Assembly: GCF_000020385.1 (NCBI RefSeq)
Contig: NC_010814.1
Span: forward strand, 720,001-752,000
Reading direction: 5' to 3'
DNA from: Trichlorobacter lovleyi SZ
GTDB taxonomy: Bacteria; Desulfobacterota; Desulfuromonadia; Geobacterales; Pseudopelobacteraceae
DNA: 32,000 bases
This document shows, piece after piece, positions 1,484 to 30,348 of this stretch. Below the pieces are notes generated by a model that was not told the DNA's origin, did no database searches, and worked only from the letters and a program-made list of their open reading frames with translations. Both the position numbers and the translations under genes were made by a program. The first letter of the stretch is position 1, and every line of letters starts with the position of its first letter.

Positions 1484-1495
1484 GGCGGGCCCGCT

Positions 1496-2503: not shown

Positions 2504-2508
2504 GCCGG

Positions 2509-5603: not shown

Positions 5604-5710
5604 GATGTGCCGGCACCTTTAGCGTTAGAATGTCATGCGTTGAGAGAGGTTATGTCAATAGTACTACTTGTACAATCTATTTCCAGAAAGTTGTTGCTGC
5701 GGGAGTTGTC

Positions 5711-6820: not shown

Positions 6821-7002
6821 TGTTCCTTAGGCGGGTATACAGGTATCAGGCAACATACTGGTACCCATCACCCACTGCTTGTGTTGCTGGTCTAGAATAC
6901 CACCAGTTTTAATATGCCGCTACCGATGTCCCGGCCAGTATACCCAGGATCCTGCAGCTCGACGACGGCATCGCCTTGAAAGCCAAGCACGCCCCATCGG
7001 CC

Positions 7003-7443: not shown

Positions 7444-7576
7444 GTCTGGTTCCCTCCCTTTGCGGGTGTAGTAGTGGTACCGTGTTTCGTGCAAGCTGGG
7501 CGTGACAGGGTCAGTCAACCATAAGTCGCTGCCGTCAGCTTTAGCGGCACCTTGCTCCGGCATCCTGACCTGTCTC

Positions 7577-8719: not shown

Positions 8720-9811
8720 TCAGCCCTGCTTCAGGGTCACCGTCACCCTGTTTATTTCTTCACAGCGCTGGTAGTCGATCTGCTGTGCCAGGTGGGTGAT
8801 GATATTCAGCCCCAGCTCATCGGGCAGGCGGTCTTTATCCAGCAGGTTGACCGCCTCTCCCCGGTTCTCCAGAATGATCTCCAGGCTCTCCTTCTTTTCA
8901 GAATAGGCGATGGTCAGGTCAAGGGCGGTTGTGGCCAGCAGCGGGGTATGGATCTGCAGCAGTTCTTCCACCAGCAGCAGCAGGTTGTGCCGGGTCTTTC
9001 TGGGCAGGATCTGCCGTTCGCAGAAGATCTCGATCTCCGCATTCATGGCATACAGGTCATAGTCAGCTGAGCTGATGCAGTAGTTGAAGCTGCGGATCCG
9101 GTTGATAAAGGCCCTGGTCTTTTCCTTCTGAGGGTTTTCAAAGATCTGCTGCGGGGTGCCCTCTTCATAGATCAGGCCTTCGTCCATGTAGAGCACCCGG
9201 CTGGAGACATCACGGGCAAAGTCCATCTCATGGGTGACGATCAGCATGGTCATGCCGTCCTTGGCCAGTCTGCGGATGACCGCCAGTACCTCGCTGACCA
9301 TGGTGGGGTCAAGGGCCGAGGTCGGTTCGTCAAACAGGATGATCTCCGGGTTCATGGCCAGGCAGCGGGCAATGGCCACCCGCTGTTTCTGACCACCGGA
9401 CAGTTCATCGGGGAAACTGTCGGCCTTTTCAGCCAGCCCCACCAGTTTGAGGATCTCCAGGGCCTTCTGTTCTGCTTCCTGTTTGTTGATCCCCAGCAGC
9501 CTGACCGGACCGATGGTCAGATTTTCCAGGGCGGTCAGGTGGGAGAAGAGGTTGAAGGATTGAAAGACCATGTTCATCCGCTGCCGGATCCTGGGGATGT
9601 CGCTCTTTTTGTCCAGCAGGTCGATCCCGTCCACGGCGATTGATCCGCCGCTGGGTTGTTCCAGCAGGTTGAGACAGCGCAGGAAGGTGGATTTGCCGGT
9701 GCCGGACGGTCCGATGATGGAGATGACTTCTCCCTTGGCAACGCTGAGGGAGATGTCTTTCAGTACGGTGACCTCACCGTAGGTCTTTGAGAGGTGTGCT
9801 ACCCTGATCAT
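8720..9811 (-). CDS. Polar amino-acid ABC transporter ATP-binding protein (GlnQ-like) with an uncharacterised C-terminal extension of about 120 aa, 363 aa
   Basis: It has Walker A GPSGTGKS, signature LSGGQKQR, Walker [12 protein letters not shown] and H-loop VTHEM. About 120 further residues follow the usual end (...TRAFINRI). Its ATG overlaps the permease stop as ATGA (9808-9811). Confidence 0.9.
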
Positions 9812-12185: not shown

Positions 12186-12203
12186 TTGCGTCTTGCATGC
12201 CAT
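12186..12203 (-). promoter_or_regulatory. Candidate sigma-54 (-24/-12) promoter upstream of the SBP-permease/ATPase operon
   Basis: The minus strand reads ATGGCATGCAAGACGCAA. GG and GC are separated by exactly 10 nt, the -24 half is TGGCAT and the -12 half is ACGCA (weaker). It lies about 100 nt upstream of the ATG at 12075. No GCCAAC dyad lies upstream. Confidence 0.35.
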
Positions 12204-18119: not shown

Positions 18120-18500
18120 TTAGAAGAAACCCGCCGGGGTACTTGAGCCCACGGTGACACCGCCCTGTTTGTCCACGGTAACAACGTAGTCTTTCAGCAG
18201 CTTGGGAACTGGCTCCTGATACTCCTTCAATACTGCCTTGCTGGGATCGGTACCGTCGGTGGTGTTAACCACCTTGATCTGGTTGACCGCTTTTACCGGT
18301 GATCCCAGCCCCGGCTTGGAGCTGTTGGGGTTGATGATCTCCGGACTGTTTTTGCTGCCGTCGCTGAATTTGACGCCGACGACGAGTACGAAATTTGAGT
18401 TGTTGATGACCTTGACCATACCGGCTTCGGCGCTGCCCAGACTGCACAGTGCGGTTGTCAGCAGGGTGGCGAATGCGGTGATGAGGGTTGTCTTTTTCAT
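18120..18500 (-). CDS. Small exported protein, 126 aa
   Basis: RBS AAGGAG. The signal peptide is MKKTTLITAFATLLTTALCSLGSAEA. The mature protein starts GMVKVINNS, a VKVxN motif shared with 7003, 23401 and 24410. Confidence 0.7.
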   Translation of the reverse strand: MKKTTLITAFATLLTTALCSLGSAEAGMVKVINNSNFVLVVGVKFSDGSKNSPEIINPNSSKPGLGSPVKAVNQIKVVNTTDGTDPSKAVLKEYQEPVPKLLKDYVVTVDKQGGVTVGSSTPAGFF

Positions 18501-18695
18501 GGTGATCTCCTTGGTTTAAGTAGGGACGTTCCCAAATTGAATGGGTAACATAGAAGGCAATACCGGTCGCTCGATTGTCATTTTGCCATTACCTGATTCC
18601 CCCTGAATACGACCTCGCAGGCCTTGGGGCCGGTTATACCTGTTATGTGCAACGAAGTGGCAGGCTCCCTCCATCCTGTTATTATTACCTTGTTC

Positions 18696-18712
18696 AGCAA
18701 TAGCTGTGCCAA
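18696..18712 (-). promoter_or_regulatory. Sigma-54 promoter (-24/-12)
   Basis: The minus strand reads TTGGCACAGCTATTGCT, a full match to TGGCAC-N5-TTGCT. The -24 G is at 18709 and the -12 C at 18697. The predicted TSS is near 18685, 185 nt before the ATG at 18500. Confidence 0.7.
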
Positions 18713-18756
18713 TGGCTAACATGCTGAATTAATGGCCTTGTAACTCTGCGGCAGCT

Positions 18757-18791
18757 GCCAACTTATGCCTGGTTCTGCCAACATTGTTGGC
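18757..18791 (-). promoter_or_regulatory. Bipartite upstream activating sequence (dyad plus third half-site)
   Basis: The minus strand reads GCCAACAATGTTGGC-N14-GTTGGC. The dyad centre at 18784 lies 75 nt upstream of the -24 G. Confidence 0.6.
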
Positions 18792-18881
18792 GGTTTGACG
18801 GCTCTGCATTGTGATACGGAAACAGACGGAACTCCGCTTCATTTTTTGTCACCCGGCGTCCCTTGAATACGGTTTTTGTTG

Positions 18882-19322
18882 TCATTTCACATGGAGCTTT
18901 TCGAAAACAATCTTGCAGGCCTGTTCCTTGGTTACGCCAGGGTCCAGTGCTACCTGTCCGGTCCTGTCGCCGCTTGCAGCACTCCCTTCCAAACAAGAGC
19001 CCATGTAACACTCATAACTATTGCCGCTTGTATGATAGCAAGCGTAGCATATGGATCTGTAATGGTGATTATAACCCCGCCTTGACGTATCCTGATACAT
19101 CAGCTCGAAAGATTCCCATGTGCCCCAGCGCCAGAACTCGATGACAGAAGAGAATAGCAGCTTTGAAAAAGTACATTTCCATGGGCTTGCAACTGTGAAG
19201 GCTTCCACTTTTTTATACTCTTCTTCAATGTAGGTGCCTGACCAGCTCGAAGGCGCCGAGGCTGTCAGCGCAAGAATTACCGCTGCGAGTATCATGAAAC
19301 CTTTAAAGAAGTAGCGATGCAT
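18882..19322 (-). CDS. Small exported Cys-rich protein, 146 aa (family A)
   Basis: RBS GGGGAGG and a signal peptide are present. It shares FWRWGTWESF and the C-terminal ACKIVFEKL with 28301-28684 (FWNWGKWQSF, ACEIIFKAA). Confidence 0.7.
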   Translation of the reverse strand: MHRYFFKGFMILAAVILALTASAPSSWSGTYIEEEYKKVEAFTVASPWKCTFSKLLFSSVIEFWRWGTWESFELMYQDTSRRGYNHHYRSICYACYHTSGNSYECYMGSCLEGSAASGDRTGQVALDPGVTKEQACKIVFEKLHVK

Positions 19323-19547
19323 TTTGTCCTCCCCTTTGTGTTTAAGCGGTTTTCTGTCCAGCTTGAGCTGTTACAGCGACGGGAATCCGCCACCGGCTTG
19401 CCGGATAATTTCAGCTGATTACTTCTGCACTAGAAATCTTCTGCAAGCCGTTACTGGCCGGGTAAATTCATTTCTTTTGCAAAGACACTGCATGCCTCGC
19501 TCTGCGAGATCCCCGGTTTCCAGAAAACTGTTGTGGCATGCCATGAC

Positions 19548-20354
19548 TTACCGGCTTACCCGTATCCAGCCGCCATGTCCGTACATGGCAGTTCCGGCTG
19601 CCATGGCCTTAACGACCAATGCCGCGTCAACCCAGTATGGTTCGTAGTACTCCCGGTCAACATCAAGCACCAGCACGCGGCCTTTTCCGGCATCATAGGC
19701 GGCTATGGGGGAGATGTGCGGGTACGGCCCACCTCCGGCACCGGTCAGGGTATCCTGGGTGAAGTGAATCAGAATCATGTCATCAGCGGAAGATTCGTTG
19801 GCTGCGAGGGCCTTACGCCAAAGGTCGCGAGTGGGCTGGTTATCGGAAGTAACCTGAACCTTTTCGATTCTGGGGGACGCTATCCCGTTCTGCCGAAGCG
19901 CTTCGGCCAGCACCAGAGCCAACTGATCAAGGGTCAGCCCCACCTGGCCGTTTACACCCCCCTTTTGTACCCGCTGCGCCCATTGGGCTATCTTGACTGT
20001 ATTCAGCAGCATGGCAGACGAAGCGTTCCGATCACTGTCGGCAAGGTTGCGATTAGCACGGGTCAGTGCGTTAACCACCGCCGCTACGGTTGCCACGGAG
20101 CAGTCATAGGCATTCAGTTGCGGCACGTAATAGGGAGATAAGGCCCAGTAGTCGGGAGCCGGATGGGCAGGATTCTGAAAATAGGTGTGATCCCGTGAAA
20201 GCGGCACTGTTGTGGAAGCATATTTAGGGCCGGGGTCTCCTGCAACGCAGATTGCCGAGATAAAGAAGGCAATCAGCGCTGCAGATCCACTGCGCAGAAA
20301 CAGTCTGAACATTGCTATTTGGGATCCATGAAGCGACTTGTGCGCTGCTTGCAT
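19548..20354 (-). CDS. Exported phytochelatin-synthase-like (papain-fold, PF05023-like) protein, 268 aa (alternative start at 20312)
   Basis: The catalytic-Cys block QLNAYDCSVATVAAVVNAL and the His/Asp block PHISPIAAYDAGKGRVLVLDVDREYYEPYWV match cyanobacterial and plant PCS N-domains. A signal peptide is present. ATG 20354 has a GAAGAGG RBS. ATG 20312 lies 2 nt after the upstream gene's stop. Confidence 0.8.
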   Translation of the reverse strand: MQAAHKSLHGSQIAMFRLFLRSGSAALIAFFISAICVAGDPGPKYASTTVPLSRDHTYFQNPAHPAPDYWALSPYYVPQLNAYDCSVATVAAVVNALTRANRNLADSDRNASSAMLLNTVKIAQWAQRVQKGGVNGQVGLTLDQLALVLAEALRQNGIASPRIEKVQVTSDNQPTRDLWRKALAANESSADDMILIHFTQDTLTGAGGGPYPHISPIAAYDAGKGRVLVLDVDREYYEPYWVDAALVVKAMAAGTAMYGHGGWIRVSR

Positions 20355-20713
20355 GATGCCTCTTCGCCGCGGCAGCGCAGGATTTTATTTCTGTCATCCT
20401 TTGCGGCCTGCAGACATGAAGCAAGGTCTGTCTCACACTTCTCGCGGGCCGCTTTCCACAACTCCGACCGCAATATGTTGCGGTTGACATCAGGGCATTT
20501 CAGGTTGCAATCGCCAGGTGGCTTAATCCAGATGGGGGTGAAGCAGGCATCAAACACCTTGCCGCCGGTCTCGTTCATTACGCATCTGGTTACACATGCC
20601 TTGCATTCTTCAGTGGCAGGTTTGTACTCTGTTGCCCAAAGGGGCGCTGCGGCAACTACCGCCAGGAATGTGGCTGTTACAACAAGCTTGTTCAGTGAAT
20701 AGCGATTACTCAT
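20315..20713 (-). CDS. Exported Cys-rich protein, 132 aa (11 Cys)
   Basis: It has a perfect RBS AAGGAGG and the signal peptide MSNRYSLNKLVVTATFLAVVAAAPLWA. It overlaps or abuts the PCS-like gene. Confidence 0.7.
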   Translation of the reverse strand: MSNRYSLNKLVVTATFLAVVAAAPLWATEYKPATEECKACVTRCVMNETGGKVFDACFTPIWIKPPGDCNLKCPDVNRNILRSELWKAAREKCETDLASCLQAAKDDRNKILRCRGEEASCKQRTSRFMDPK

Positions 20714-20790
20714 GATTTCCTCCTTTATTTGTCAGGGGGGTATGCTTCATGGGGGATAATCAGGGATATACATATTTGCAGAAAAACGGC

Positions 20791-21240
20791 TCATTTTACG
20801 GGGCGTACAGGCAATACATAGTTAAATTTATTCACCGTCTCTCTGTCGCTGTTGCCGCTCATGCTGGAGCTATAACAGAGAGTTACCGGTTGCCCCAAGC
20901 CGGGCCCCCACATCTGTACCAAGCAGGTGGATGACCAGTAGTTACCCTGCTGAATATTCGCGAGACCTGAAAGACTCCGCAACTGCCTCAACTCGCTTTC
21001 CGTGGGAAGCCGTCAGTCTCCGGCTTTCGAACTGTCGTTCAGACCGCACTGGCCGCTTGCAAGGTTCTTGGCTCTTGCATCAGCGTCAACCCAGTTCATC
21101 TTTCCCAGACAACCGGCATCCTTCAACACGATAAGATTGTTTAAGATTAGTGTTCCGTTGTCGCCGCACCATGCTGCGTCGTTTGCCGCGCCAATTAGCA
21201 GTGCTGCAAGCAGTAATGATCCGATAATGGTTGTTTTCAT
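20791..21240 (-). pseudogene. DUF1566 (Lcl C-terminal domain) exported protein interrupted by an in-frame TGA at 21013-21015
   Basis: The single frame reads ...GQCGLNDSSKAGD-TGA-RLPTESELRQL...NYWSST...VLPVRPVK. The stop occupies the conserved Trp of the WRLPT motif. RBS GAGAGGAGA and a signal peptide are present. Confidence 0.7.
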
Positions 21241-21259
21241 GGTGTGTCTCCTCTCGTGG

Positions 21260-21607
21260 TTATTGCCAGGTGCCAGAGCATGGCGGCGCGGTGCAGAGCA
21301 GGTTGCAGAACCTGTTCAGATCGGTCATGGGAAAGTCAAAGGGGATGACCGCTGAGCCATAGTTGTCCCTGCACTGGTACTTGCCGTCGTACTTCAGGCA
21401 TGAGTATGATTTGAATTGGCAGCCCACCAGATGGCCTTTTTCAATCATGCCGTTCACAACCTTGGTGATTGCATTGGGGTGGATGGTGCAGCGTTTAGTG
21501 AAGTAATCCGGGTTACTGGTGCAGATAAACGTCTGGGCAAAGGAGTTGCCGGCCAGTGCCAGTACTGCAGCGGTGAGCAGAACAGCTGTCAGGTAGGTAT
21601 TTTTCAT
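21260..21607 (-). CDS. Small exported Cys-rich protein, 115 aa
   Basis: The start is chosen at ATG 21607 (AAGGA RBS). The signal peptide is MKNTYLTAVLLTAAVLALAGNSFA. The mature part has 10 Cys. A 19-nt gap separates it from the downstream DUF1566 gene. Confidence 0.65.
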   Translation of the reverse strand: MKNTYLTAVLLTAAVLALAGNSFAQTFICTSNPDYFTKRCTIHPNAITKVVNGMIEKGHLVGCQFKSYSCLKYDGKYQCRDNYGSAVIPFDFPMTDLNRFCNLLCTAPPCSGTWQ

Positions 21608-21736
21608 GCTGTTTTTCCTTTCCAGTCTGATGGATAACGCCAATTTTCCGAAAACGTAAAGGTCACGTTGCCATGCAGAAAAGACAGAGGTCGTCAGTTG
21701 CCGCTACCTGCGTCCAGCTGCCAGTTGTTACACTCG

Positions 21737-22171
21737 TTACTTGTTACGGACAGGCCAGATATAGCCGTCACCGTTGCCTTTCTGGTAGTCTGTCAGATAG
21801 CCGCTGGGGAAAACCACAACATAGGTATACTTTTCCCCCATACTGAGTGACGTCCAGTACATCCCTGATATAATCCGGCTGAAACCACTGGTGTCTACGG
21901 CCCTGCTTGCCAGTTCTCTGGGGGTTGGAAGCCGCCACTGACCGGCAGTAGACTTGTCACTCAGTCCGCACATACCGGACTGCAGGCCGGCAACCTTGGT
22001 TTCAGCAGTCCACCACCCACTCTAGCCCAGACAGTTGACGTTTTTAAGCCAGACAATGCCGTGGGCGTCGTCAGCAATGGTGCCATTTTTGTTGTCCTTG
22101 TTTGCCGCCTGGGCGAAACCGGCCAAAAGAAGACAGATTACCGCTGTTATCACAAAAGAGAACGTCTTCAT
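21737..22171 (-). pseudogene. DUF1566 exported protein interrupted by an in-frame TAG at 22022-22024
   Basis: I translated it codon by codon: MKTFSFVITAVICLLLAGFAQA...IVWLKNVNCLG-TAG-SGWWTAETKVAGLQSGMCGLSDKSTAGQWRLPTPREL...YWTS...IWPVRNK. The stop aligns with Lys of the paralog (GCLGKMNW). RBS AAGGAG. Confidence 0.7.
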
Positions 22172-22228
22172 GGTGAGTTACTCCTTTTACCTGCTATTTA
22201 ATCACCTCATACAATGCAGTAAGGATAA

Positions 22229-22287
22229 AGGGGCAGGTCGCAACTGCCGACATTTTAAAAGTTTGTATGGAGTTGAGACCTGCCCCT
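22229..22287 (-). terminator. Long imperfect hairpin downstream of the CVNH gene (possible terminator)
   Basis: There is an 11-bp perfect inverted repeat, AGGGGCAGGTC (22229-22239) and GACCTGCCCCT (22277-22287). Five more inner pairs follow (CAACT/AGTTG). On the minus-strand transcript it is followed by UUUAUCCUU. Confidence 0.35.
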
Positions 22288-22332
22288 CATGCACAAAAAA
22301 AATAAGTGTTCTAATTTCCTCGCCAGTTATCC

Positions 22333-22809
22333 CTACTGGTCAAACAGCAGCACTCCCTTATTGTTGCTAAGACCGGTATTTAGATCGAGTGCTGCAGGGA
22401 TGTCCAAAGACAAAAGCCCCCCGGTTTTGCACTTTGCATGTAAGGTCACGCTACCAGTCATCGCAACCTCATAACCTGATTTTACCTCAAGATGGAGGTT
22501 GCTGCAGGTGGTACTAAAATTTGTCCCTTTAAATTTTAGCGCTCCCGCTAGATTTGAGATGCCCTGATTAAGATCGATTGCGGTTGGTCGTCCGATACGG
22601 CAATTCATTCCGAGAAAATCACAGATACAGGGGGATTCTATGCCCGGGGTACATTTCATTGAGGTCATGCACACAGCGCTAAGGTACTTTCCTTGTAGTG
22701 ATATGTTTCTGCAGGTTTCGCTGAAATTCTGTGCCTTTGACTGACCGGTGATTGTCGCCATGAGGAGTGCTGCTACAAGGAAACTTCTAATGTACTGCCG
22801 TGTATTCAT
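22333..22809 (-). CDS. Exported CVNH (cyanovirin-N homology) lectin-like protein, 158 aa
   Basis: It has two pseudo-repeats. The first is NFSETCRNISLQGKYLSAVC...AIDLNQGISNLAGALKF. The second is NFSTTCSNLHLEV...LHAKCKT...ALDLNTGLSNNKGVLLF. These mirror cyanovirin-N (FSQTCYNSAIQGSVLTSTC...SIDLNSVIENVDGSLKW / NFIETCRNTQL...INLDDHIANIDGTLKY). A signal peptide is present. Confidence 0.75.
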   Translation of the reverse strand: MNTRQYIRSFLVAALLMATITGQSKAQNFSETCRNISLQGKYLSAVCMTSMKCTPGIESPCICDFLGMNCRIGRPTAIDLNQGISNLAGALKFKGTNFSTTCSNLHLEVKSGYEVAMTGSVTLHAKCKTGGLLSLDIPAALDLNTGLSNNKGVLLFDQ

Positions 22810-22868
22810 CGGGATCTTCCCCCTGGAATTGTGGTGTTAAGCTGAATTAAGCGTTGAACTTATTCCGG

Positions 22869-23312
22869 CTAATTAGGGCAGAAACCGTATTTGACGCTCT
22901 CTAGGACAGGATCAGGTGGTATTGAAGGTTTGGGGCAGACCCTGACACTGGCACTGTATTTACATTCAACAAAATTAAGGCCTTGTACATAATCAGTGCC
23001 GGCGCAGGTGTGGCCTGCCAAATAGATTTTATTGTTGTTTTTATCAACCCTCCACCCCTCGATTGTCATGAGCGGCGTATTGTAGGGGGCTGTCCAGGTG
23101 TAGATCTGTCCTCGCTGGAGGACCACTGTATTTGTTGTCCCGCCGGCCTGCATGGTGATCGTGTAGTGATCAAACGGCAGGTCACTCGGCAACTGTACCT
23201 TCCATTGATAGGTGTTGGGAAGCGGGAGCTGAAATGCCTGGGCCCGATTTGGCGCAAGTATGGTCAGGCACCAGAAACAGAAAAACAGGGTAATGACACT
23301 GGCTGATTTCAT
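22869..23312 (-). CDS. Small exported protein, 147 aa
   Basis: The start is chosen at ATG 23312 (AGGAGA RBS). The signal peptide is MKSASVITLFFCFWCLTILAPNRAQA. The longer ORF-track version lacks an RBS and overlaps the upstream gene. Confidence 0.65.
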   Translation of the reverse strand: MKSASVITLFFCFWCLTILAPNRAQAFQLPLPNTYQWKVQLPSDLPFDHYTITMQAGGTTNTVVLQRGQIYTWTAPYNTPLMTIEGWRVDKNNNKIYLAGHTCAGTDYVQGLNFVECKYSASVRVCPKPSIPPDPVLESVKYGFCPN

Positions 23313-23400
23313 GGTTGTCTCCTTTGGGCAGACAGGTGGACGTTTCCCTCTTTCTGTAAGTGGAAGGGACCTGACTAGATAGCATGCGGGGAGATTAATG

Positions 23401-23769
23401 CTAATCCACCTTGTCCAGTCTTGGATTGCCTTGGTTGTCCTTCCAAATATGCCATTGTGAACTTTTACAGGAAAAAAAGCAGTTTTGAGCATTGCTTGAA
23501 TCTCTTCCGTCAGCACAGATGACCAGGGTGTTAAACCCTTTAGCCGGGAATTTATTGCGATCTAAACATACCACATTCAACCCTACCGGGCATTTTAGTC
23601 CAAACTCGAAAGTGTACAGTGCGCCGTTGTTAGAAGCAGGAAAAACATGGGACTTTTGCTTGTTAAATACTCCATATAAGACGGTAACTCCACATTCGTA
23701 GTTAGTAAGATTAGTGACTTTAACCCTATGGTTAATCGCATCTGCCGGTACAGGTGATAGCAACGCCAT
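23401..23769 (-). CDS. Small Cys-rich protein (family C); the annotated ATG lies inside an apparent signal peptide, and the true start is possibly non-canonical near 23817
   Basis: The open frame upstream of ATG 23769 reads VITKCCTSTIFLACLLC-M-ALLSPVPADA, a signal-peptide-like stretch, with no ATG/GTG/TTG in frame back to the TAG at 23875-23877. Paralog motifs are YTFEFGLKCPVGLNVVC and CFFSCKSSQWHIWKD. Confidence 0.5.
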   Translation of the reverse strand: MALLSPVPADAINHRVKVTNLTNYECGVTVLYGVFNKQKSHVFPASNNGALYTFEFGLKCPVGLNVVCLDRNKFPAKGFNTLVICADGRDSSNAQNCFFSCKSSQWHIWKDNQGNPRLDKVD

Positions 23770-23889
23770 ACACAGCAGACACGCAAGGAATATTGTTGAT
23801 GTGCAACATTTTGTAATTACTTGGCTATTTATGATTTGATGGTAACCCCCTTCTTGGAAAGAGCGTGATCGGTTCTATGTATTGTTGTT

Positions 23890-23924
23890 GCCAATAGCCA
23901 TCCTGATGCACCAACTCTGTTGGT
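23890..23924 (-). promoter_or_regulatory. Bipartite UAS-like element without a recognisable -24/-12 promoter
   Basis: The minus strand reads ACCAACAGAGTTGGT-N14-ATTGGC, the same architecture as the elements at 18757, 24934 and 28785. The position expected for TGGCAC-N5-TTGC reads GGGGTTACCATCAAAT. Confidence 0.4.
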
Positions 23925-24065
23925 AGTCTAATCCGATTTAAGCGCAATTATTGGACCCAGCATTGCTGCCTGACGAGGTTACAATAAGGAGACTGTCACC
24001 TTATGGCCTCCCATTTGTTTCTCCATGTTTGAAATGAGTCCTTCTGTACTGTTTTCAATCTGCCG

Positions 24066-24338
24066 CTATTTCAACGTGCCGTTCCAGCAAAACCAGCCAC
24101 TCTTTGAATCGTACGCCTTGCCGCTGGCGTTCAACTGCGCCTGAAGGGCCGACGTCAGAAGATAGTACTGAATATAGTTGGACTGTACGGTATCGACTTT
24201 CAGGAAACTGCCTCCTATACCGCCGCTCCCGCAGTACTTGGAATTTCCACTTCCAACGCACAGACAGGTTGTTGCGCTGGCCGGTACGCCAGCCAGCAGA
24301 GCCGCGAACATAAGTGATCCGATGATTGTTTTCTTCAT
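24066..24338 (-). CDS. Small exported 4-Cys protein, 90 aa (family B)
   Basis: The start is ATG 24338 (AGGAGA RBS). The signal peptide is MKKTIIGSLMFAALLAGVPASA. The 68-aa mature part is 49/68 identical to that of 30070-30348 by hand alignment. Confidence 0.7.
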   Translation of the reverse strand: MKKTIIGSLMFAALLAGVPASATTCLCVGSGNSKYCGSGGIGGSFLKVDTVQSNYIQYYLLTSALQAQLNASGKAYDSKSGWFCWNGTLK

Positions 24339-24380
24339 GACATGTCTCCTGTTGTAGTAGTTGTTGCCCACCCCATCAAC

Positions 24381-24397
24381 TGCAGATGGCATGCCGA
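24381..24397 (-). promoter_or_regulatory. Sigma-54 promoter (-24/-12) for the family B gene
   Basis: The minus strand reads TCGGCATGCCATCTGCA, with GG-N10-GC spacing exact. It is very similar to the 28726 promoter (TTGGCATGCAATCTGCT). The predicted leader is about 32 nt. Confidence 0.55.
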
Positions 24398-24409
24398 TAA
24401 CTGCGAAAA

Positions 24410-24832
24410 TCAATACATGCTCCATACCCAGGTCATGGGAGGATTGTAGGGAGGTTTATCGGTCTTGGTATTTGGATCTGTTGGCTTGACTTCAACACGA
24501 TGGTTCCAGCACTGCGCGCCGAGATAGCCGGACTCCAGTGCTTGATAATAATCAGGTGCGCCCCCCCAATAATTTCTGGCAACATAGATGTTCACGCGTG
24601 TCGGGCAGTAGTCAAAAATGTAAGAGTCCAGCTTGCAGGTTCCTCCGCCGATATAGTCCCCATAATAATAACCACTGCATTTCAGCGTTTCCCCAAGCCA
24701 TGTTTGCTGGTACACCTCGTACCTCAACTGGTGGCCGGTGCTGTTGACGATTTTTACCTCCCACGCAGCTGCCTCAACCACGCACAACAGCAGCAGACAA
24801 AGCGCCAGCAAACATACCTTACGTCTGTTCAT
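24410..24832 (-). CDS. Small exported Cys-containing protein, 140 aa
   Basis: ATG 24832 lies 9 nt after GGGAG. The signal peptide is MNRRKVCLLALCLLLLCVVEAAA. The mature protein starts WEVKIVNST. DYCPTRVNIYV and AQCWNHRVEVKP resemble family C motifs. Confidence 0.65.
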   Translation of the reverse strand: MNRRKVCLLALCLLLLCVVEAAAWEVKIVNSTGHQLRYEVYQQTWLGETLKCSGYYYGDYIGGGTCKLDSYIFDYCPTRVNIYVARNYWGGAPDYYQALESGYLGAQCWNHRVEVKPTDPNTKTDKPPYNPPMTWVWSMY

Positions 24833-24873
24833 ATCAGCCACCTCCCGGTATGCAGTTGATCTGTACTGTCTAA

Positions 24874-24890
24874 TACAGTATGTGTGCCAA
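24874..24890 (-). promoter_or_regulatory. Sigma-54-type promoter with variant -12 element
   Basis: The minus strand reads TTGGCACACATACTGTA. The -24 TGGCAC is perfect and the -12 reads CTGTA (GT instead of GC). It lies exactly 74 nt downstream of the dyad centre at 24961. The predicted leader is about 31 nt. Confidence 0.55.
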
Positions 24891-24933
24891 AGACGTATTT
24901 GCGTGATGTCAGTAGGTTAAGCAAATGCAAGCT

Positions 24934-24968
24934 GCCAACTTTCTGTTGCAACCGCCAACACTGGTGGC
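24934..24968 (-). promoter_or_regulatory. Bipartite upstream activating sequence
   Basis: The minus strand reads GCCACCAGTGTTGGC-N14-GTTGGC-N44-TGGCAC. It sits between the DUF819 stop (24981) and the promoter at 24874. Confidence 0.6.
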
Positions 24969-24980
24969 GACGTCAGTCCT

Positions 24981-26144
24981 TCAGAACAACCTGCAGAGCT
25001 GGGCGCAGATGATCCCCAGGTAGGTGCCGAAGATATTGCCCAGAATGGCCAGCAGCAGCCCCACCGAGGCCAGGCCGGGCTGGTAGACCTCTGCCACCAC
25101 CGGGGCAGATGCCACGCCACCCACATTGGCCTGGCTGGCAGCAGCCACCAGAAAGAACGGGGCCTTCAACAGGCGGGCCGCCACCAGCAGGAACAGGGCA
25201 TGCACCGCCATGATCAACAGCCCGGCGCCGATCAAGATCAGACCGGAGCCGATGCTGGCCACCGAGGCCTTGGCCCCGATGGCGGTCAGCACAAAGTAGA
25301 GCAGCCATGAGCCGGCAGTGGAGGCGCCGTGCTGTTCCAGTCTGCGGGCCGGGGTGCAGGAGAGCGCCAGCCCCAGCAGCGAGACCAGCACGATGGTCCA
25401 GGTGTAGCCGGAAACCACATCCTTGATCACCGGCAGCCGGCTGCCCAGCCAGTGGGACAGACCGCTGCCCGCAGCTGCGGCAGGCAGGATCAGCAGAAAA
25501 CCGGACGGGCTGAAGCGTTGCTGTAGCGTCTGCCCGGCTGCTGCAAGCCGGTTACCCAGCTCATCGATAATGCGGCGGTCAGCCCGGTTCCAGCGGTCAA
25601 AGGCCGGCTGCCAGGCTACCCCGGCGATCAGGGCCGCCATCCAGAGGTAGGGTACCACCGTATCCACGATCACCATCGGCGCAAAGACCTGATCCGGTAC
25701 GGCCAGCGCCTCCTTGACGGCGATCATGTTGGCGCTACCGCCGGTCCAGGAGGCGGACAGGGCGCCGAAGCCGGACCAGAACCGTTCACCGACCAGCGGT
25801 TTGAACAGTCCGAAGACCAGGGTCGCCCCCGCGATAATCCCCGCTGCGCCGCTGAAGAACATGGCCAGTGCCGTCGGCCCCAACCGCAGGATCGCCTTGA
25901 GATCCACTGCCAGCAGTAACAGCAGCAGGCTGGCGGGCAGAAGCCAGGTGGTGATCAGGCCGTAGACCGGGCTTCTGGCATCAAGCAGGCCAAAGGTGCT
26001 GGCCAGCATCGGCAGAAAGTAGATCCAGAAGACCGGCGGCAGCAGGTTGAACCAGGCCTTGGTCCGCTGATGGCGCGCAAGTCCCAGGATCAGCAGCTCA
26101 ATGGTCAGCAGGATCATGACTATCAACAGCGGGTGACTGACCAT
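24981..26144 (-). CDS. Polytopic membrane protein, DUF819-like, 387 aa
   Basis: It has about 11-12 hydrophobic segments and a SWTGGSANMIAVKEAL block recalled from the DUF819/YjcL family. It starts 8 nt after the upstream small gene. Confidence 0.6.
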   Translation of the reverse strand: MVSHPLLIVMILLTIELLILGLARHQRTKAWFNLLPPVFWIYFLPMLASTFGLLDARSPVYGLITTWLLPASLLLLLLAVDLKAILRLGPTALAMFFSGAAGIIAGATLVFGLFKPLVGERFWSGFGALSASWTGGSANMIAVKEALAVPDQVFAPMVIVDTVVPYLWMAALIAGVAWQPAFDRWNRADRRIIDELGNRLAAAGQTLQQRFSPSGFLLILPAAAAGSGLSHWLGSRLPVIKDVVSGYTWTIVLVSLLGLALSCTPARRLEQHGASTAGSWLLYFVLTAIGAKASVASIGSGLILIGAGLLIMAVHALFLLVAARLLKAPFFLVAAASQANVGGVASAPVVAEVYQPGLASVGLLLAILGNIFGTYLGIICAQLCRLF

Positions 26145-26152
26145 GGCAGTGA

Positions 26153-26557
26153 TTATTGGATGGTAACGGTCACGGTGCTTGGGCCGGTGCTGTTGCTTGA
26201 GGTCTGCTGGACCTGCAGGGTGTTGCCGGAGCGGCTCAATAATTGCCAGTAGGCCTTAACCTCCACCGTGGTGCCGGTATGGCTGTCGGTAAACTCTCTG
26301 CGCAGCGCGCCGTCCGGTTGCACCTCCCAGCGCTTGCAGCTGACAAAAGCGGGGTAGTTGCTGCAGGTCAGGCTGCCGTTGCTGTTGAAGGTCATGCTGC
26401 CGGTGGGATAGCCGGAACTGACCATGATCTTGCCTGAAACCAGGGCATTGGTGAATTGGGGGCCGGGAGGGCTGAAGAGGTTTTCTGCCGCTGCGATACC
26501 GCTGGTTGCAACGGCACAACTGAGGGCCACGAGGGCGATACGAAGTTGTCTTTTCAT
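26153..26557 (-). CDS. Small exported protein, 134 aa
   Basis: The signal peptide is MKRQLRIALVALSCAVATSGIAAA. RBS AGGCAGGAA. The mature part is beta-rich and Ser/Thr-rich with 2 Cys. Confidence 0.65.
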   Translation of the reverse strand: MKRQLRIALVALSCAVATSGIAAAENLFSPPGPQFTNALVSGKIMVSSGYPTGSMTFNSNGSLTCSNYPAFVSCKRWEVQPDGALRREFTDSHTGTTVEVKAYWQLLSRSGNTLQVQQTSSNSTGPSTVTVTIQ

Positions 26558-26666
26558 AGGGTGTTTCCTGCCTTTCCATGTAGAGGTTTGGTGCTGCTCA
26601 AATCGTCTGTTCTGCTCATTCAGTAAGCGGTCTGTTGTTGTCTTTCAAGTGACGTATCCTTGATCA

Positions 26667-26681
26667 GCCAACTCTGTTGGC
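26667..26681. promoter_or_regulatory. Isolated perfect dyad GCCAAC-TCT-GTTGGC
   Basis: It has the same dyad as the UAS elements but no third half-site and no -24/-12 match at the expected distance. It lies 6 nt past the stop of 26688-27053. Confidence 0.3.
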
Positions 26682-26687
26682 AGTTTG

Positions 26688-27053
26688 TCATTGCAGCTTC
26701 ACCGACCCATCCGGCTCTATAATCAGGGCATAATTAAAACCGGTCAGGTTAAAACAGCCCAGCCCGAGCCCTGTTTTTTCTTGAGGCGACATCCTGAGAA
26801 TGCCATTTACGTAGATCTCATAGATACAGGGATCTTTCAGGTTATAGTTGATGCTGGAGTTTGCGTTGACATGCACCACTTCCGGCCTGTTCAGGATGGT
26901 GCTGTTGGGATTAATGGTTATAAAACGGACAGAGACGTTATTCCTGCCCTTGTTGTTCAGGTTGATGTTGCTCCCGGCCCAGGCGGTCTGGCCCCCTGAC
27001 GCCAGAAAGAGTGTTACGGCTAGCAGTAGGTTGGTGAAGGTTTTTGGTGACAT
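26688..27053 (-). CDS. Small exported protein, 121 aa
   Basis: The start is ATG 27053 (AGGAGA RBS). The signal peptide is MSPKTFTNLLLAVTLFLASGGQTAWA. Confidence 0.65.
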   Translation of the reverse strand: MSPKTFTNLLLAVTLFLASGGQTAWAGSNINLNNKGRNNVSVRFITINPNSTILNRPEVVHVNANSSINYNLKDPCIYEIYVNGILRMSPQEKTGLGLGCFNLTGFNYALIIEPDGSVKLQ

Positions 27054-27172
27054 ATCGTGTTTTCTCCTGTTTTCCGGTATTCCCCTGCAGGCCATACCTG
27101 TTTTGTCTGTCTAAAACGATTTAAAATATTTTTTTGATTTTTTATCCGTCCGAACCAGCACTGATTGCGGTA

Positions 27173-28135
27173 TTATCGTTCATACCGGCGGGCAGCCTCT
27201 TTGACCGTCTGCAGCGCCTGCTCTTTGGGGACCACCAGTTCTCCGACTTCAGGCTGGTGGCCGGAGCCCCATTGGGTCAGCACAACATAGCTGAGGGCGT
27301 TGCCGGGTAAGGCCACCGCCATACCGAAGAAGCCGTCAGGGGCGCGGTATTCCACCAAGCGCTCCTGATATCCGGCCACCATGGCGCGAATCTGTTTCTC
27401 CAGGATGCCCGGCAGGTCCGCATCCGGCGGCAGCGCAGGCAGGCCGGCAACCGTTGCCAGGTCTTGCCGCGTGCCCATCAGTATCTGCGGCTGTTGTAGC
27501 GGATCAAGCCAGGCCAGGAGTTTGATCAGCTCGGTTTCATCAAACGCCACGCAACCGCTGGTGGTGTAGCCTGCCTCCAGCCAGGCATGGACAAAGATTC
27601 CGCTGCCGTATCCTTTGACAACCGGCTTACGGTTGTAGCCGGTTATCAGGCCGTGGCGGTAGCGGTTGTCCGCCAGCTTCATCACCTCAAAAGAGGTTGC
27701 ACTGGTCTGGCCGCGTTTTACCCAGGTGTTGTAGTCGGGGGAAAGGACATCATCCACCCACAGGTCATTCTCGGTTGCCTGTTGGTACGGCATGCTGCTG
27801 GTGATGGAAGCGGCATACCCAAAGGCCGATTCCAGCGCAAACAGGCCGGTTGGTGCCCGGCCATCACCTTCGCGCTTGTCACCGGCAGGTGCGAAGCCGT
27901 TGCGGCCGGTAACTCCCGCCAGGGGACCGGTGCGCAGCTCCCAGCCAAGAACCGTGCGTTCAAAGGCATAGATTTTCACCATTGAACTGTCGCGCGACTC
28001 TGCCAGTGCAACCAGCAACTGATTGCCGGTGATAACCGTGCCGTTCAGTGACGACTGGCTGTCAGACGGTTGTCCGGCGCAGCCGGAGATCATCAGGAGG
28101 CCGATCAAAAAAAAGTGGGTGATGATACCTTTCAT
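27173..28135 (-). CDS. L,D-transpeptidase (YkuD-fold) family lipoprotein with extra C-terminal domain, 320 aa
   Basis: The start is ATG 28135, giving MKGIITHFFLIGLLMISGC (lipobox). The catalytic block is GSGIFVHAWLEAGYTTSGCVAF (His...Ser-x-Gly-Cys). Confidence 0.75.
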   Translation of the reverse strand: MKGIITHFFLIGLLMISGCAGQPSDSQSSLNGTVITGNQLLVALAESRDSSMVKIYAFERTVLGWELRTGPLAGVTGRNGFAPAGDKREGDGRAPTGLFALESAFGYAASITSSMPYQQATENDLWVDDVLSPDYNTWVKRGQTSATSFEVMKLADNRYRHGLITGYNRKPVVKGYGSGIFVHAWLEAGYTTSGCVAFDETELIKLLAWLDPLQQPQILMGTRQDLATVAGLPALPPDADLPGILEKQIRAMVAGYQERLVEYRAPDGFFGMAVALPGNALSYVVLTQWGSGHQPEVGELVVPKEQALQTVKEAARRYER

Positions 28136-28300
28136 CGGTCTGACTTTCTCTGCGTAATCAGGATCACAACCGATAATGACCGTGAGGCCGGGCAGGATCA
28201 TCCCCTGCGTCAAACACTGCTGTATGAACTGTCGTATTCCTGAGATCATGGCTCTTTCTCTCGATAAAACTCCCGGTCACTTCCGTTCCTGCTATTCATT

Positions 28301-28684
28301 TCATCGTTTAGCCGCTTTGAATATTATTTCACACGCAGCACTCTTGCTCGTTCTAGGCTTTATAGTCGGAAGAGGCAACATGTCCAGCTTTAGAAAGAGG
28401 GCTGTATTTATTTGATTATCGGGGATTGTGCAGCCGAATTCGGTGTTGTCTGGTGATATAGCAGAACAGGTATACGTAAGAGCCTTCTCCGGCGACTGGT
28501 TTTTATAAAGCTTGGCAGTGAAGCTTTGCCATTTGCCCCAGTTCCAAAAATGACGCCAAGAACTAAGCTCTGTAACGTTAAGATCACAGGATATTTCTCC
28601 GTTAGACCAGTCGGCAGCCTGCGTGGCAGGGGCTGCTGCAAAGAGCGACACTATCAAAAGTGCGGTAATAGACAGTTTTTTCAT
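28301..28684 (-). CDS. Small exported protein, 127 aa (family A)
   Basis: The start is ATG 28684, 5 nt after GGGGG. The signal peptide is MKKLSITALLIVSLFAAAPATQA. FWNWGKWQSF and ACEIIFKAA are shared with 18882-19322. Confidence 0.7.
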   Translation of the reverse strand: MKKLSITALLIVSLFAAAPATQAADWSNGEISCDLNVTELSSWRHFWNWGKWQSFTAKLYKNQSPEKALTYTCSAISPDNTEFGCTIPDNQINTALFLKLDMLPLPTIKPRTSKSAACEIIFKAAKR

Positions 28685-28725
28685 GGCAGCCCCCTTTTTT
28701 GAAACTGACAAGCTACTTTTGATTC

Positions 28726-28742
28726 AGCAGATTGCATGCCAA
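28726..28742 (-). promoter_or_regulatory. Sigma-54 promoter (-24/-12)
   Basis: The minus strand reads TTGGCATGCAATCTGCT. The -24 G is at 28739 and the -12 C at 28727. The predicted TSS is near 28715, giving a 31-nt leader. Confidence 0.7.
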
Positions 28743-28784
28743 AATATAATGTTGTGATTTTAGTATGTTAGGTAATGAGTGTTT

Positions 28785-28820
28785 GCCAATACGACAACTG
28801 TTGCCGCCAACTCTGGTGGC
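28785..28820 (-). promoter_or_regulatory. Bipartite upstream activating sequence abutting the EBP gene
   Basis: The minus strand reads GCCACCAGAGTTGGC-N15-ATTGGC-N43-TGGCAT. The dyad (28806-28820) ends 1 nt from the EBP stop codon (28822-28824). The dyad centre lies 74 nt from the -24 G. Confidence 0.6.
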
Positions 28821-28821
28821 G

Positions 28822-30048
28822 CTACTCCATGCCCAGCCGCTTCAGCTTCTTGCGCAGCCCCTCGCGGCTCATTCCCAGCCGTTCTGCTGCCTGGGTCTTG
28901 TTGCCTTTGGCCTCTTTCAGCGCCTGCTCGATCAGCTGTTTCTCTGAATCCTTCAGCAGTGATTTTCCCCCGGCTGCTGGTAGAGTGGTCTGCTGCTGCA
29001 GCGGATCAGAAAGGTCGGTCATGGTAATGGTGTCGCCGTAGGCCAGTGCCACAGCCCGCTCAATTTCGTTATCCAGTTCACGCACGTTGCCGGGCCAGGT
29101 ATAGCCGCGCAGCCGTTCCAGCGCCTCTTTGGCAATCCGCATCGGCGGCCTGCCGCAACTGCGGCCCCACTTCTCCAGAAATTGGCGTGCAATCAGGTCA
29201 ATGTCGCCTTTACGTTCCCGCAGGGGCGGAATCCGCAGGGTAACGCCGTTCAGGCGGTAGTAGAGATCCTCCCGGAAGCTGCCTTTGGCAATCTCTTTGG
29301 TCAAATCGCGGTTGGTAGCGGCAATGATCCTCAGATCAACCGGGATGGCGGTCCGGCTGCCGACCCGTTCCAGGGTCCGCTCTTCCAGCACCCGCAAAAG
29401 TTTGGCCTGCAGTTGCAACGGCATCTCCCCCACCTCGTCCAGAAACAGGGTGCCGCCTTGCGCCTGCTGGATCTTGCCGATGCGGGCCTCGACCCCGGTG
29501 GCCACCCCCTTTTCAATGCCGAACATTTCGCTTTCAAAGATGGTCTCCGGGATGGCGGAACAGTTGACTGCCACAAACGGCTTGGCGCTGCGGGGGCTGT
29601 TGAAGTGGATCGCCTTGGCGAACAGTTCCTTGCCGGTGCCGGTCTCGCCGGTGATGATCACCGACAGGCGGGAATCGGCTATCCGTTCTGCCTTGCCGAT
29701 CAGCTCCCTGATCTGGGGGCTGGTGCCGAGGATGGAGGAAAAGGGAAAGGAACGGCGCAGGTTCTTTTTGAGGCTGCTGTTCTCGCGGGCCAGCTGTTCC
29801 CGGGCTGTGCGCAGTTGGAGTTCGGTTGCCCGAAGCTCTTCGATGATCTGCTCCAGCCGGTATTCCCGTGCCTCGACCTTGACCGCCATCATCCCGAACG
29901 ACTCGGCAAAGCGGGCGATCAGGGGGGGGTACTGGCCGCTTTTGGTCAGTTCGAAAATGTCGTTGTATTTACCGTAACGCCCCATGGAGAGGTCTTCGGC
30001 CACGGCGATCAGGCGATCAAGCAGCTGGTTGAGTGGAGTGTCGTGCAT
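28822..30048 (-). CDS. Sigma-54-dependent Fis-family transcriptional activator (bEBP) with a short non-receiver N-terminus and a variant L1 loop, 408 aa
   Basis: The AAA+ core has Walker A GETGTGKE, GGTLFLDEVGEMP and RVGS...IAATNRDL. The C-terminal Fis HTH is KTQAAERLGMSREGLRKKLKRLGM. The GAFTGA position reads GVATGV (29491-29508). The first 100 aa or so are coiled-coil-like with no REC/PAS/GAF pattern. Confidence 0.9.
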   Translation of the reverse strand: MHDTPLNQLLDRLIAVAEDLSMGRYGKYNDIFELTKSGQYPPLIARFAESFGMMAVKVEAREYRLEQIIEELRATELQLRTAREQLARENSSLKKNLRRSFPFSSILGTSPQIRELIGKAERIADSRLSVIITGETGTGKELFAKAIHFNSPRSAKPFVAVNCSAIPETIFESEMFGIEKGVATGVEARIGKIQQAQGGTLFLDEVGEMPLQLQAKLLRVLEERTLERVGSRTAIPVDLRIIAATNRDLTKEIAKGSFREDLYYRLNGVTLRIPPLRERKGDIDLIARQFLEKWGRSCGRPPMRIAKEALERLRGYTWPGNVRELDNEIERAVALAYGDTITMTDLSDPLQQQTTLPAAGGKSLLKDSEKQLIEQALKEAKGNKTQAAERLGMSREGLRKKLKRLGME

Positions 30049-30069: not shown

Positions 30070-30348
30070 TTACTTTAAGGTGCCGTTCCAGCAAAACCAG
30101 CCTGATTGGCCATCATAGGCCTTACCGGCACTGGCAAGCTCGCTTCGCAAGGCAATGGTTAGCAGGTAATAGTTAAGGTGGTTTTGAGAAACAGTATCAA
30201 CCTTGAGGAAAGAGCCGCCTATTGCCCCGTTTCCACAGCTTTTGGAGCTTCCGTAGCCGACGCACAGGCAGGTTGTGGCAGCGGCAGGCAGAACTGCAGA
30301 TACGGCAATCAGTACGGCTACAAAGATGATGCATGCTGTCATTTTCAT
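30070..30348 (-). CDS. Small exported 4-Cys protein, 92 aa (family B)
   Basis: RBS AAAGGGG and a signal peptide are present. The mature part is TTCLCVGYGSSKSCGNGAIGGSFLKVDTV...SGWFCWNGTLK. It ends 21 nt upstream of the EBP ATG. Confidence 0.7.
   Translation of the reverse strand: MKMTACIIFVAVLIAVSAVLPAAATTCLCVGYGSSKSCGNGAIGGSFLKVDTVSQNHLNYYLLTIALRSELASAGKAYDGQSGWFCWNGTLK

Follow-up and report, generated by a model that had tools for sequence, protein, structure and literature searches.

Three copies of one regulatory module were found on the minus strand of a 32-kb stretch of Trichlorobacter (formerly Geobacter) lovleyi SZ DNA (NC_010814.1, positions 720,001 to 752,000; this whole stretch is called the window), each placing an upstream activating sequence (UAS) and a -24/-12 promoter in front of a gene for a small exported protein. 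We estimate, with a probability of about 80%, that these are three classical enhancer-dependent sigma-54 promoters and belong to the regulon of the enhancer-binding protein (EBP) encoded at 28822-30048 (-), which represents the Geobacteraceae branch of the family of DVUA0100, an EBP from the megaplasmid of Desulfovibrio vulgaris. The first-pass annotation of this DNA had proposed a regulon of exported proteins under such modules, and this proposal is supported by the recurrence of the module beside EBP orthologs and by a pattern scan of other genomes. The promoter architecture itself is conventional; what is notable is the rigid 77-80 nt geometry, an activator loop devoid of its usual phenylalanine, an undescribed input domain and a switch of target genes between lineages.

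Three enhancer-promoter modules in the window

Read from upstream, each complete module consists of a dyad (GCCAMC-N3-GTTGGC), then after 20-21 nt a half-site (GTTGGC or ATTGGC) and, at 79-80 nt from the start of the dyad, a -24/-12 promoter. All positions below are those of the window, and every module element, remnant and target gene is, like the EBP gene, on the minus strand. In module A, the dyad GCCACCAGAGTTGGC (28806-28820) has its centre at about -98 from the predicted transcription start site (TSS), the half-site ATTGGC (28785-28790) follows at 21 nt from the dyad's right arm, and the promoter TGGCATGCAATCTGCT (28726-28741) would start transcription near 28715. Module B begins with the dyad GCCACCAGTGTTGGC (24954-24968), 12 nt past the stop codon of the DUF819 gene, and continues with the half-site GTTGGC (24934-24939), an element resembling the site of integration host factor (IHF) (TAACCTACTGACA, 24907-24919, 2 mismatches to the consensus YAANNNNTTGATW, 30 nt upstream of TGGC) and the promoter TGGCACACATACTGTA (24874-24889), with a predicted TSS near 24863. 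The dyad of module C is a perfect palindrome, GCCAACAATGTTGGC (18777-18791), followed by the half-site GTTGGC (18757-18762) and the promoter TGGCACAGCTATTGCT (18696-18711), with a predicted TSS near 18685.

The four -24/-12 matches given by the first-pass annotation (the fourth is the stand-alone site at 24381), its three dyads and their second elements were all recovered at the same minus-strand positions. A hand count bore out the spacings of 14, 14 and 15 nt from dyad to second element and of 45, 44 and 43 nt from there to TGGCA in modules C, B and A, and the EBP stop codon (TAG, 28822-28824) is indeed separated from the dyad of module A by 1 nt. Leaders of 31-32 nt had been expected for three of the genes; those now predicted are 31, 31 and 32 nt long (ATGs at 28684, 24832 and 24338), and that of the fourth gene (18500) is 185 nt. 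Exported proteins are likewise supported as the products, as each complete module precedes a small-protein gene with a Sec signal and no match in Pfam or NCBIfam.

Chance had been considered an unlikely origin of these modules, and the statistics agree. The dyad GCCAMCNNNGTTGGC with at most 1 mismatch gave 9 strand-hits in the window against a shuffle mean of 0.63, and 0 of 100 shuffles reached 9. An nhmmer profile made from 31 modules of other genomes, from which the window copies were excluded, matched all three window modules over their full length (E = 9.9e-21 for B, 1.8e-16 for A and 6.4e-16 for C). The whole 32 kb was also scored on both strands with an approximate sigma-54 weight matrix that we built ourselves. 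The promoters at 28726 and 18696 ranked joint best in the window (17.2 bits each), the site at 24381 third (13.5 bits) and the promoter at 24874 tenth; the last scores low (10.6 bits) since it carries GT instead of GC at -12. The arrangement that defines the sigma-54 class, GG at -24 and GC at -12 with ten bases between, inside TGGCAC-N5-TTGCW, is complete at 28726, 18696 and 24381. By itself, the pattern TGGCA-N7-TGC showed no enrichment in the window (4 observed vs 3.06 expected). Thus the significance rests on the combination of the elements and on their conservation. When the three window copies were compared pairwise, the motif columns were 85-91% identical and the remaining columns 31-43%. 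Since the identity is confined to the motif columns, the modules are to be regarded as selected sites and not as recent duplicates of a repeat.

The position of the dyads just behind stop codons raises another explanation, namely that they are hairpin terminators or intergenic repeats of the repetitive extragenic palindromic (REP) kind whose association with TGGCA is incidental. Three dyads begin 1, 6 and 12 nt past the upstream stop codon, and one was listed as terminator-like, though on the non-transcribed strand. However, the hairpin would have a 6-bp stem and a 3-nt loop and lacks a U-tract on the coding strand, the window shows no excess of terminator-like sites (13 vs 16.6 expected), conservation is limited to the motif columns, and a fixed distance of 77-80 nt to a -24/-12 element in 34 modules would be left unexplained. 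Given the missing U-tract, the motif-only conservation and the fixed promoter distance, we rejected both an intrinsic terminator and a REP element as the nature of the dyad, and consider this explanation extremely improbable.

Conservation of the module across genomes

Neighbourhoods of EBP orthologs were fetched from a second T. lovleyi-like strain (94% identity), from T. thiogenes (93%) and from metagenome-assembled genomes (MAGs) at 85% and 82% identity; such loci from other genomes carry L-numbers (e.g. L008 for T. thiogenes). In all of these neighbourhoods the dyad is present and a sigma-54 site comes behind it, at 77-79 nt counted from its first base, with modules beside the EBP orthologs in L007-L010. 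T. thiogenes has seven modules inside 20 kb, and the 82% MAG (L010) has a dyad directly behind the EBP stop codon, as in the window. The expectation that the module is kept near orthologs in related genomes was therefore confirmed, with the same geometry in T. thiogenes, the second T. lovleyi-like strain and several MAGs of Geobacteraceae and Desulfuromonadaceae.

A pattern search of the kind proposed earlier was carried out on one genome per species, covering 185,579 species, with a pattern that contained only the dyad, the TTGGC half-site and TGGCA. It returned 24 loci, 17 of them in Trichlorobacter, Geobacter or Geobacteraceae. T. lovleyi SZ is not among the loci returned, although the window fits the pattern. 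All of the 17 Geobacteraceae loci (17/17) also carry TGC or TGT at -12, which was absent from the search pattern, and an ortholog with the family-specific N-terminus of the EBP was found within 8 kb in 6/17 Geobacteraceae loci and in 0/7 of the others. These seven other matches (two in Sulfuritalea, two in Thermoplasmatota, one each in Flavobacteriales, an alphaproteobacterium and Nostoc) were judged to be chance, because they lie in GC-rich sequence that looks coding by eye and have neither a -12 element nor an EBP.

Alignment of 34 non-identical modules from about ten Geobacteraceae genomes, including the three of the window, was almost free of gaps and gave the consensus aAccGCCAaCa.aGTTGGC - N14 - GTTGGCAG - ~12 nt - TAAcatactgatAt - ~17 nt - TGGCAcaca..cTGCta. 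Counted from the dyad start, TGGC was 79 nt away in 16 modules, 78 nt in 14, 80 nt in three and 77 nt in one, and the -12 dinucleotide was GC in 29 and GT in five. Measured from the predicted TSS, the centre of the palindrome is at about -98; two helical turns from it, at about -77, is that of the second site, which has GTTGGCAG as its conserved half, and an IHF-like element follows at about -50. This element, TAACAnaCTGATA, agrees with the IHF consensus with at most 1 mismatch in 17/34 modules compared with 3% of shuffled controls, and its offset is fixed, always 29-30 nt upstream of TGGC. In silico, the 34 modules, which are linked to EBP genes, thus show the UAS typical of sigma-54 promoters, in the form of a conserved dyad and half-site at 77-80 nt upstream.

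The linkage of module and EBP recurs in at least 10 genomes, distant ones included. Near distant EBP orthologs (56% identity), the order of EBP gene, dyad-like site, sigma-54 promoter and small gene is retained with a spacing of 131-135 nt. At L035 16634-16784 and L036 11253-11399, 135 or 131 nt separate a dyad-like site (GCCTACAAAGTTGTC or GCAAACAAAGTTGCC) from the sigma-54 site downstream of it, behind which comes a small gene; this spacing exceeds that of Trichlorobacter by about five helical turns. In T. thiogenes (L008 6869-11227) and in a MAG (L009 6919-11224), a module was seen upstream of a gene run that ends in the EBP gene. A module in this position suggests putative positive autoregulation of the EBP, as for DVUA0100. 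The region of T. lovleyi that corresponds to this EBP-upstream region is past the end of the window.

The activator and its relation to DVUA0100

The EBP is a protein of 408 aa composed of an N-terminal helical domain (residues 1-100) and, as assigned by Pfam, a Sigma54_activat AAA+ domain (PF00158, E = 8e-67), AAA_lid_14 and the helix-turn-helix (HTH) domain HTH_8 (E = 4e-15); it reaches no equivalog cut-off in NCBIfam. Walker A (GETGTGKE) and Walker B (LFLDE) are intact and, with the remaining AAA+ signatures, conserved, and the HTH is nearly invariant in the alignment of the family. The L1 loop reads GVATGV and not GAFTGA (residues 181-186; 29491-29508). This GVATGV loop was kept in 34 homologs down to 56% identity, with G181, A183, T184, G185 and V186 as the invariant residues.

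A regulator of the same family has been described by Kazakov et al. 2015 (BMC Genomics 16:919, PMC4641369), for Desulfovibrio (Nitratidesulfovibrio) vulgaris Hildenborough and its relatives. In their account DVUA0100, encoded on the D. vulgaris megaplasmid, is a one-component regulator that has a 'long conserved N-terminal region' and the L1 loop GVATGV. The binding motif of DVUA0100 was derived by comparative genomics upstream of the sigma-54 promoters of type III secretion operons, and positive autoregulation was reported for it (PMC4641369). The predicted sites include GCCAACACTGTTGGC, GCCAACCTTGTTGGC, GCCAACGCTATTGGC, GGCAACGATGTTGGC and similar sequences, which are frequently paired 23-32 nt apart (PMC4641369 supplement). 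By BLASTP, the window EBP and DVUA0100 share 52% identity over 311 aa (residues 37-347, E = 7e-108), and 53% in the HTH, the recognition helix of which is conserved. The likeness extends to the N-terminal 'AE(S/A)FGMMxVKVEARE' region with its coiled coil, to the GVATGV loop, to a near-identical HTH, and to a predicted site that is the same 15-bp palindrome (GCCAAC-N3-GTTGGC) upstream of -24/-12 promoters and near the EBP gene. In both lineages, moreover, the EBP is linked to a gene for a HAMP-SpoIIE phosphatase, and these phosphatase genes are homologous. The two systems differ in their targets, which in Desulfovibrio are the type III secretion operons and a predicted effector on plasmid pDV1, whereas the Geobacteraceae targets are small proteins with Sec signals. 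They differ also in the distance from site to promoter, which is variable in Desulfovibrio (about 110-290 nt by the supplementary positions) but fixed at 77-80 nt in Geobacteraceae, and in the length of the activator, as DVUA0100 has 575 aa with a low-complexity N-terminal insert. Because the DVUA0100 prediction was made in a different order of bacteria, the link between EBP and dyad is backed independently; by the same token the finding is not new in kind, and what is new here is the Geobacteraceae lineage.

The dyad might instead be the site of another DNA-binding protein encoded elsewhere, either an EBP or a repressor, in which case the proximity of the EBP gene would be coincidental or would reflect a shared history of the island. 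Protein and site are linked by proximity and co-occurrence only, and the pattern scan returned no loci from T. lovleyi SZ. On the other hand, the linkage is seen in at least 10 genomes including distant ones, the same palindrome was derived independently for the Desulfovibrio homolog in a type III secretion context, and the recognition helix of the HTH is conserved across both lineages. We therefore regard such a second protein as very unlikely.

With the EBP taken as the activator, the modules would work as follows. EBP dimers would bind the palindrome GCCAMC-N3-GTTGGC, centred at about -98, through the C-terminal HTH_8, and would also occupy the weaker site with the conserved half GTTGGCAG, two helical turns downstream at about -77. 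The bound dimers would then assemble into an ATPase hexamer. A bend, produced by IHF where a YAANNNNTTGATW-like element is present at about -50, would bring this hexamer to the closed sigma-54 holoenzyme at TGGCAY-N5-CTGCW, and ATP hydrolysis would open the promoter. The short and invariant distance between enhancer and promoter (77-80 nt) may reflect the exact helical phasing needed in a tight loop. The products would be small Sec-exported proteins, among them beta-sandwich proteins and a Cys-rich 90-aa family, and in relatives DUF1566/Lcl_C proteins and cyanovirin-like lectins.

Such a scheme resembles the classical IHF-assisted tandem-site promoters NtrC-glnAp2, NifA-nifH, PspF-pspA and DctD-dctA, which have two activator sites on the same helical face upstream of -24 GG/-12 GC, an IHF-type bend between and an AAA+ activator with a Fis-type HTH. 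It differs from them in that the enhancer is unusually near the promoter and at an invariant distance, and in that the activator has no GAFTGA Phe and carries another input domain. In the same bacterial family as T. lovleyi, the RpoN regulon of Geobacter sulfurreducens, reportedly described by Leang and colleagues in 2009, is said to place many envelope and exterior functions under sigma-54 through numerous EBPs.

The unusual loop leads to a further alternative. The Phe of GAFTGA is normally required to engage sigma-54, and Phe mutants of PspF, NtrC and NifA lose activation. The sigma-54 promoters could thus be real and the EBP could bind the dyad, but a Phe-less GVATGV protein might be unable to remodel sigma-54 alone and would then act as a repressor or anti-activator, or in a mixed hexamer with a second, canonical EBP in the manner of HrpR/HrpS. 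The replacement of GAFTGA in all 34 homologs speaks for this possibility, and for DVUA0100 it was stated that the substitutions in its GVATGV L1 loop 'might interfere' with sigma-54 binding (PMC4641369). Against it, Walker A, Walker B and the remaining AAA+ signatures are intact, no second EBP gene consistently adjoins in the neighbourhoods examined, and the tandem UAS sites, the IHF-like site and the fixed phasing are the geometry of an activator. The loop is moreover under strong purifying selection and hence not decayed. Taken together, an EBP incapable of activation by itself appears unlikely.

Several points nevertheless weigh against the reading of the modules as a sigma-54 regulon of this EBP. 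Since the EBP has no GAFTGA Phe, canonical activation is not to be assumed. The first-pass annotation had assigned the EBP to the dyad from proximity, and the part of this claim that has gained ground is that the same palindrome was assigned to the homolog DVUA0100; all steps are nonetheless computational, here as well as for DVUA0100, the published motif of which is itself a comparative-genomics prediction. The 'local' character of the regulon is unproven for T. lovleyi SZ, as the scan of this strain covers the 32-kb window, and the genes for rpoN and IHF lie outside it. IHF-like matches are poor in two of the window modules, the WATCAANNNNTTR-type site between UAS and promoter having 3 mismatches each in A and C compared with 2 in B. 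Finally, the -12 dinucleotide of the promoter at 24874 is GT and not GC, and the C is near-invariant in known promoters.

The same -12 form (CTGTA/TTGTA) was observed in four further Geobacteraceae modules (L008 13919, L008 17176, L012 7527 and L028 7602), and the genes behind these are not clear orthologs of the gene behind module B (24410-24832). As the GT recurs in modules of other genomes, it seems to be a variant that is being maintained and not an error.

The first approximately 100 residues of the EBP are strongly conserved, and they are not a receiver, GAF, PAS or V4R domain. In Pfam, the N-terminal domains of 20 members remained unmatched at E <= 10 apart from coiled-coil noise, a profile search of the PDB gave no significant match, and Foldseek returned 0 PDB matches. 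An assignment as HAMP, which the sequence pattern seemed to call for, was dropped since neither Pfam nor the PDB profile nor Foldseek supported it. The AlphaFold model shows three helices, the last of which extends into a long coiled coil (pLDDT, the predicted local distance difference test score, 78). A profile search of 1.84 billion representatives for this domain (residues 1-104, 29737-30048) yielded 355 clusters at 50% identity, in which the domain is fused to sigma-54 AAA+ domains, to HisKA/HATPase_c kinases (some of them hybrid with REC and Hpt) and to Guanylate_cyc, or stands alone at about 138 aa. It also heads a protein with HD_5, a domain of the HD-GYP type, beside a STAS/HATPase_c_2 pair (L007) and is present on a histidine kinase divergent from the EBP gene (L025).

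Genes that recur around the EBP orthologs encode a STAS protein, an anti-sigma-type kinase with HATPase_c_2, an outer-membrane factor, a PAS-containing membrane-fusion protein, a MacB-type ABC (ATP-binding cassette) pump and a dCache-HAMP-SpoIIE phosphatase. In the window, the last is a phosphatase of the PP2C type by Pfam, encoded at 3453-5603 (-). It is a homolog of DVUA0099 (33% identity over 464 aa, E = 5e-65), which on pDV1 lies two genes downstream of DVUA0100, past a 124-aa hypothetical gene. We infer from this linkage to the EBP family across lineages that the phosphatase is a candidate upstream signalling partner. The N-terminal domain may be a modular input domain, possibly being addressed by partner-switching proteins. 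No description of an EBP as the target of a partner switch turned up in our literature search.

These observations can be joined into one rather doubtful scheme, in which the EBP family activates sigma-54 promoters without the GAFTGA Phe, its N-terminal helical domain docks a SpoIIE/STAS/HATPase_c_2 switch, the genes of which accompany the EBP from Desulfovibrio to Geobacteraceae, and the switch turns on a secreted arsenal. If true, this would be a partner switch with an EBP, and not a sigma factor, as its output. In Desulfovibrio the arsenal would be the type III system. In Geobacteraceae it would consist of small proteins of a lectin-like or beta-sandwich kind, for which the adjacent MacB-type pump might be the exit route.

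As for the regulon itself, the modules provide a compact and phylogenetically validated promoter set for a barely studied EBP family, which makes it testable how a GVATGV AAA+ activator opens sigma-54 promoters. A regulator is thereby assigned to an island of orphan exported proteins in organohalide- and metal-respiring Geobacteraceae, and the targets of this one regulator and site appear to have been rewired, from the type III secretion of Desulfovibrio to the Sec-exported proteins of Geobacteraceae. A literature search on the motif string returned only irrelevant eukaryotic papers on C/EBP.

Target genes, remnants and the surrounding island

Target gene A (28301-28684) encodes a protein of 127 aa with a signal peptide and no match in Pfam or NCBIfam. 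It probably heads a run consisting of the YkuD L,D-transpeptidase gene (27173-28249), 26688-27053, 26153-26557 and the DUF819 gene (24981-26144), so that module A would probably drive the L,D-transpeptidase operon as well; this extent is predicted because the gaps are short and other promoters are absent. Behind module B lies target gene B (24410-24832), coding for 140 aa with a signal peptide and no family match. Target gene C (18120-18500) codes for an exported protein of 126 aa with a predicted 8-stranded beta-sandwich. Its family comprises only 38 clusters, all from Geobacter, Trichlorobacter or Desulfuromonadaceae, and its predicted structure had only generic beta-sandwich neighbours (template-modelling score TM <= 0.51), from which a function is not deducible. 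The 185-nt leader of this gene was considered as a riboswitch or small RNA and rejected, as its fold is no better than that of shuffles (z = +1.45) and it has no Rfam match.

A further small gene, 24066-24338, encodes a Cys-rich exported protein of 90 aa, a paralog of 30070-30348. Among its orthologs, those of T. thiogenes (L008 19673) and L014 come with a full module. Upstream of the T. lovleyi gene, a stand-alone candidate -24/-12 site, CGGCATGCCATCTGCA (24381-24396), lies without a UAS of its own inside a 71-nt gap, with a predicted leader of 32 nt like those of the neighbouring genes. By our estimate, the chance of a match of at least 13 bits in a correctly oriented intergenic gap of the window is about 0.04, as calculated from 1.1 expected matches per shuffled window and about 2.5 kb of such gaps. 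No sigma-54-like site equivalent to it was found upstream of the paralogous 90-aa genes of T. thiogenes. The site is thus a plausible, if uncorroborated, sigma-54 promoter, and it may work with the UAS at 24954, which is some 570 nt further upstream. A weaker sigma-54-like site, TGGCATGCAAGACGCA (12187-12202 (-), 10.8 bits), was noticed in the gap that precedes the ABC-transporter gene 9808-12075; over the first 10 nt this site is identical to the promoter at 28726, and no dyad is located upstream of it.

The three dyads of the first-pass annotation are real, but its count was incomplete. A fourth exact dyad, GCCAACAGAGTTGGC (26667-26681), has neither a second site nor a -24/-12 site. Since complete modules are present at orthologs of the gene downstream of it, 26153-26557 (L016 7156 and L026 2031), this dyad probably represents a module that has decayed. 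A degenerate fifth UAS, ACCAACAGAGTTGGT-N14-ATTGGC (23890-23924, nhmmer E = 0.0013), has no promoter, and the small open reading frame (ORF) behind it (23401-23809) probably has a frameshifted signal peptide. The window thus holds three intact modules and two remnants. In other genomes, own modules were found at orthologs of 26153-26557, 22869-23312, the CVNH gene 22333-22809 and 20315-20713, and at Cys-rich and Lcl_C genes. Two exported-protein genes of the DUF1566/Lcl_C type in the window are interrupted: 21737-22171 contains one in-frame stop (TAG, 22022-22024), and in 20791-21240 a TGA (21013-21015) takes the place of the Trp of the conserved WRLPT motif. Both are probably pseudogenes. The remnant modules together with these two in-frame stops suggest that the island is decaying in T. 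lovleyi SZ.

The longest non-redundant tiling ORFs of the window are nearly all on the minus strand. From 18.1 to 30.4 kb extends a series of small ORFs with evident Sec signal peptides, the majority of them without a Pfam or NCBIfam match. Scattered among them are the YkuD L,D-transpeptidase, the DUF819 membrane protein, the cyanovirin-like CVNH protein, a phytochelatin-synthase-like protein and the Lcl_C/DUF1566 fragments. Rfam gave zero families at gathering score over the whole window, and no domains of type III secretion systems were found in the window or in any Geobacteraceae locus examined.

A 701-bp direct repeat (99% identity) is present at 9814-10514 and 30407-31107. It corresponds to the 3' parts of two SBP_bac_3-permease fusion genes, and its copies flank 20.6 kb that include the EBP gene and all modules. 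A metagenome contig (L002) links 15124->9814 of the window to 30404->28786 via this repeat; such a join would arise from an excised circle, from a tandem duplication or else from an assembly artefact. At lower coordinates, a block of a dCache-HAMP-SpoIIE gene, ABC_sub_bind and two Mem_trans genes (503-8668) is syntenic with a Desulfuromonadaceae MAG, and a gene resembling Fe-alcohol dehydrogenase lies near the SpoIIE gene both in the window and on pDV1 of Desulfovibrio (loci compared: L010 12890-18016 and L038 7805-11198).

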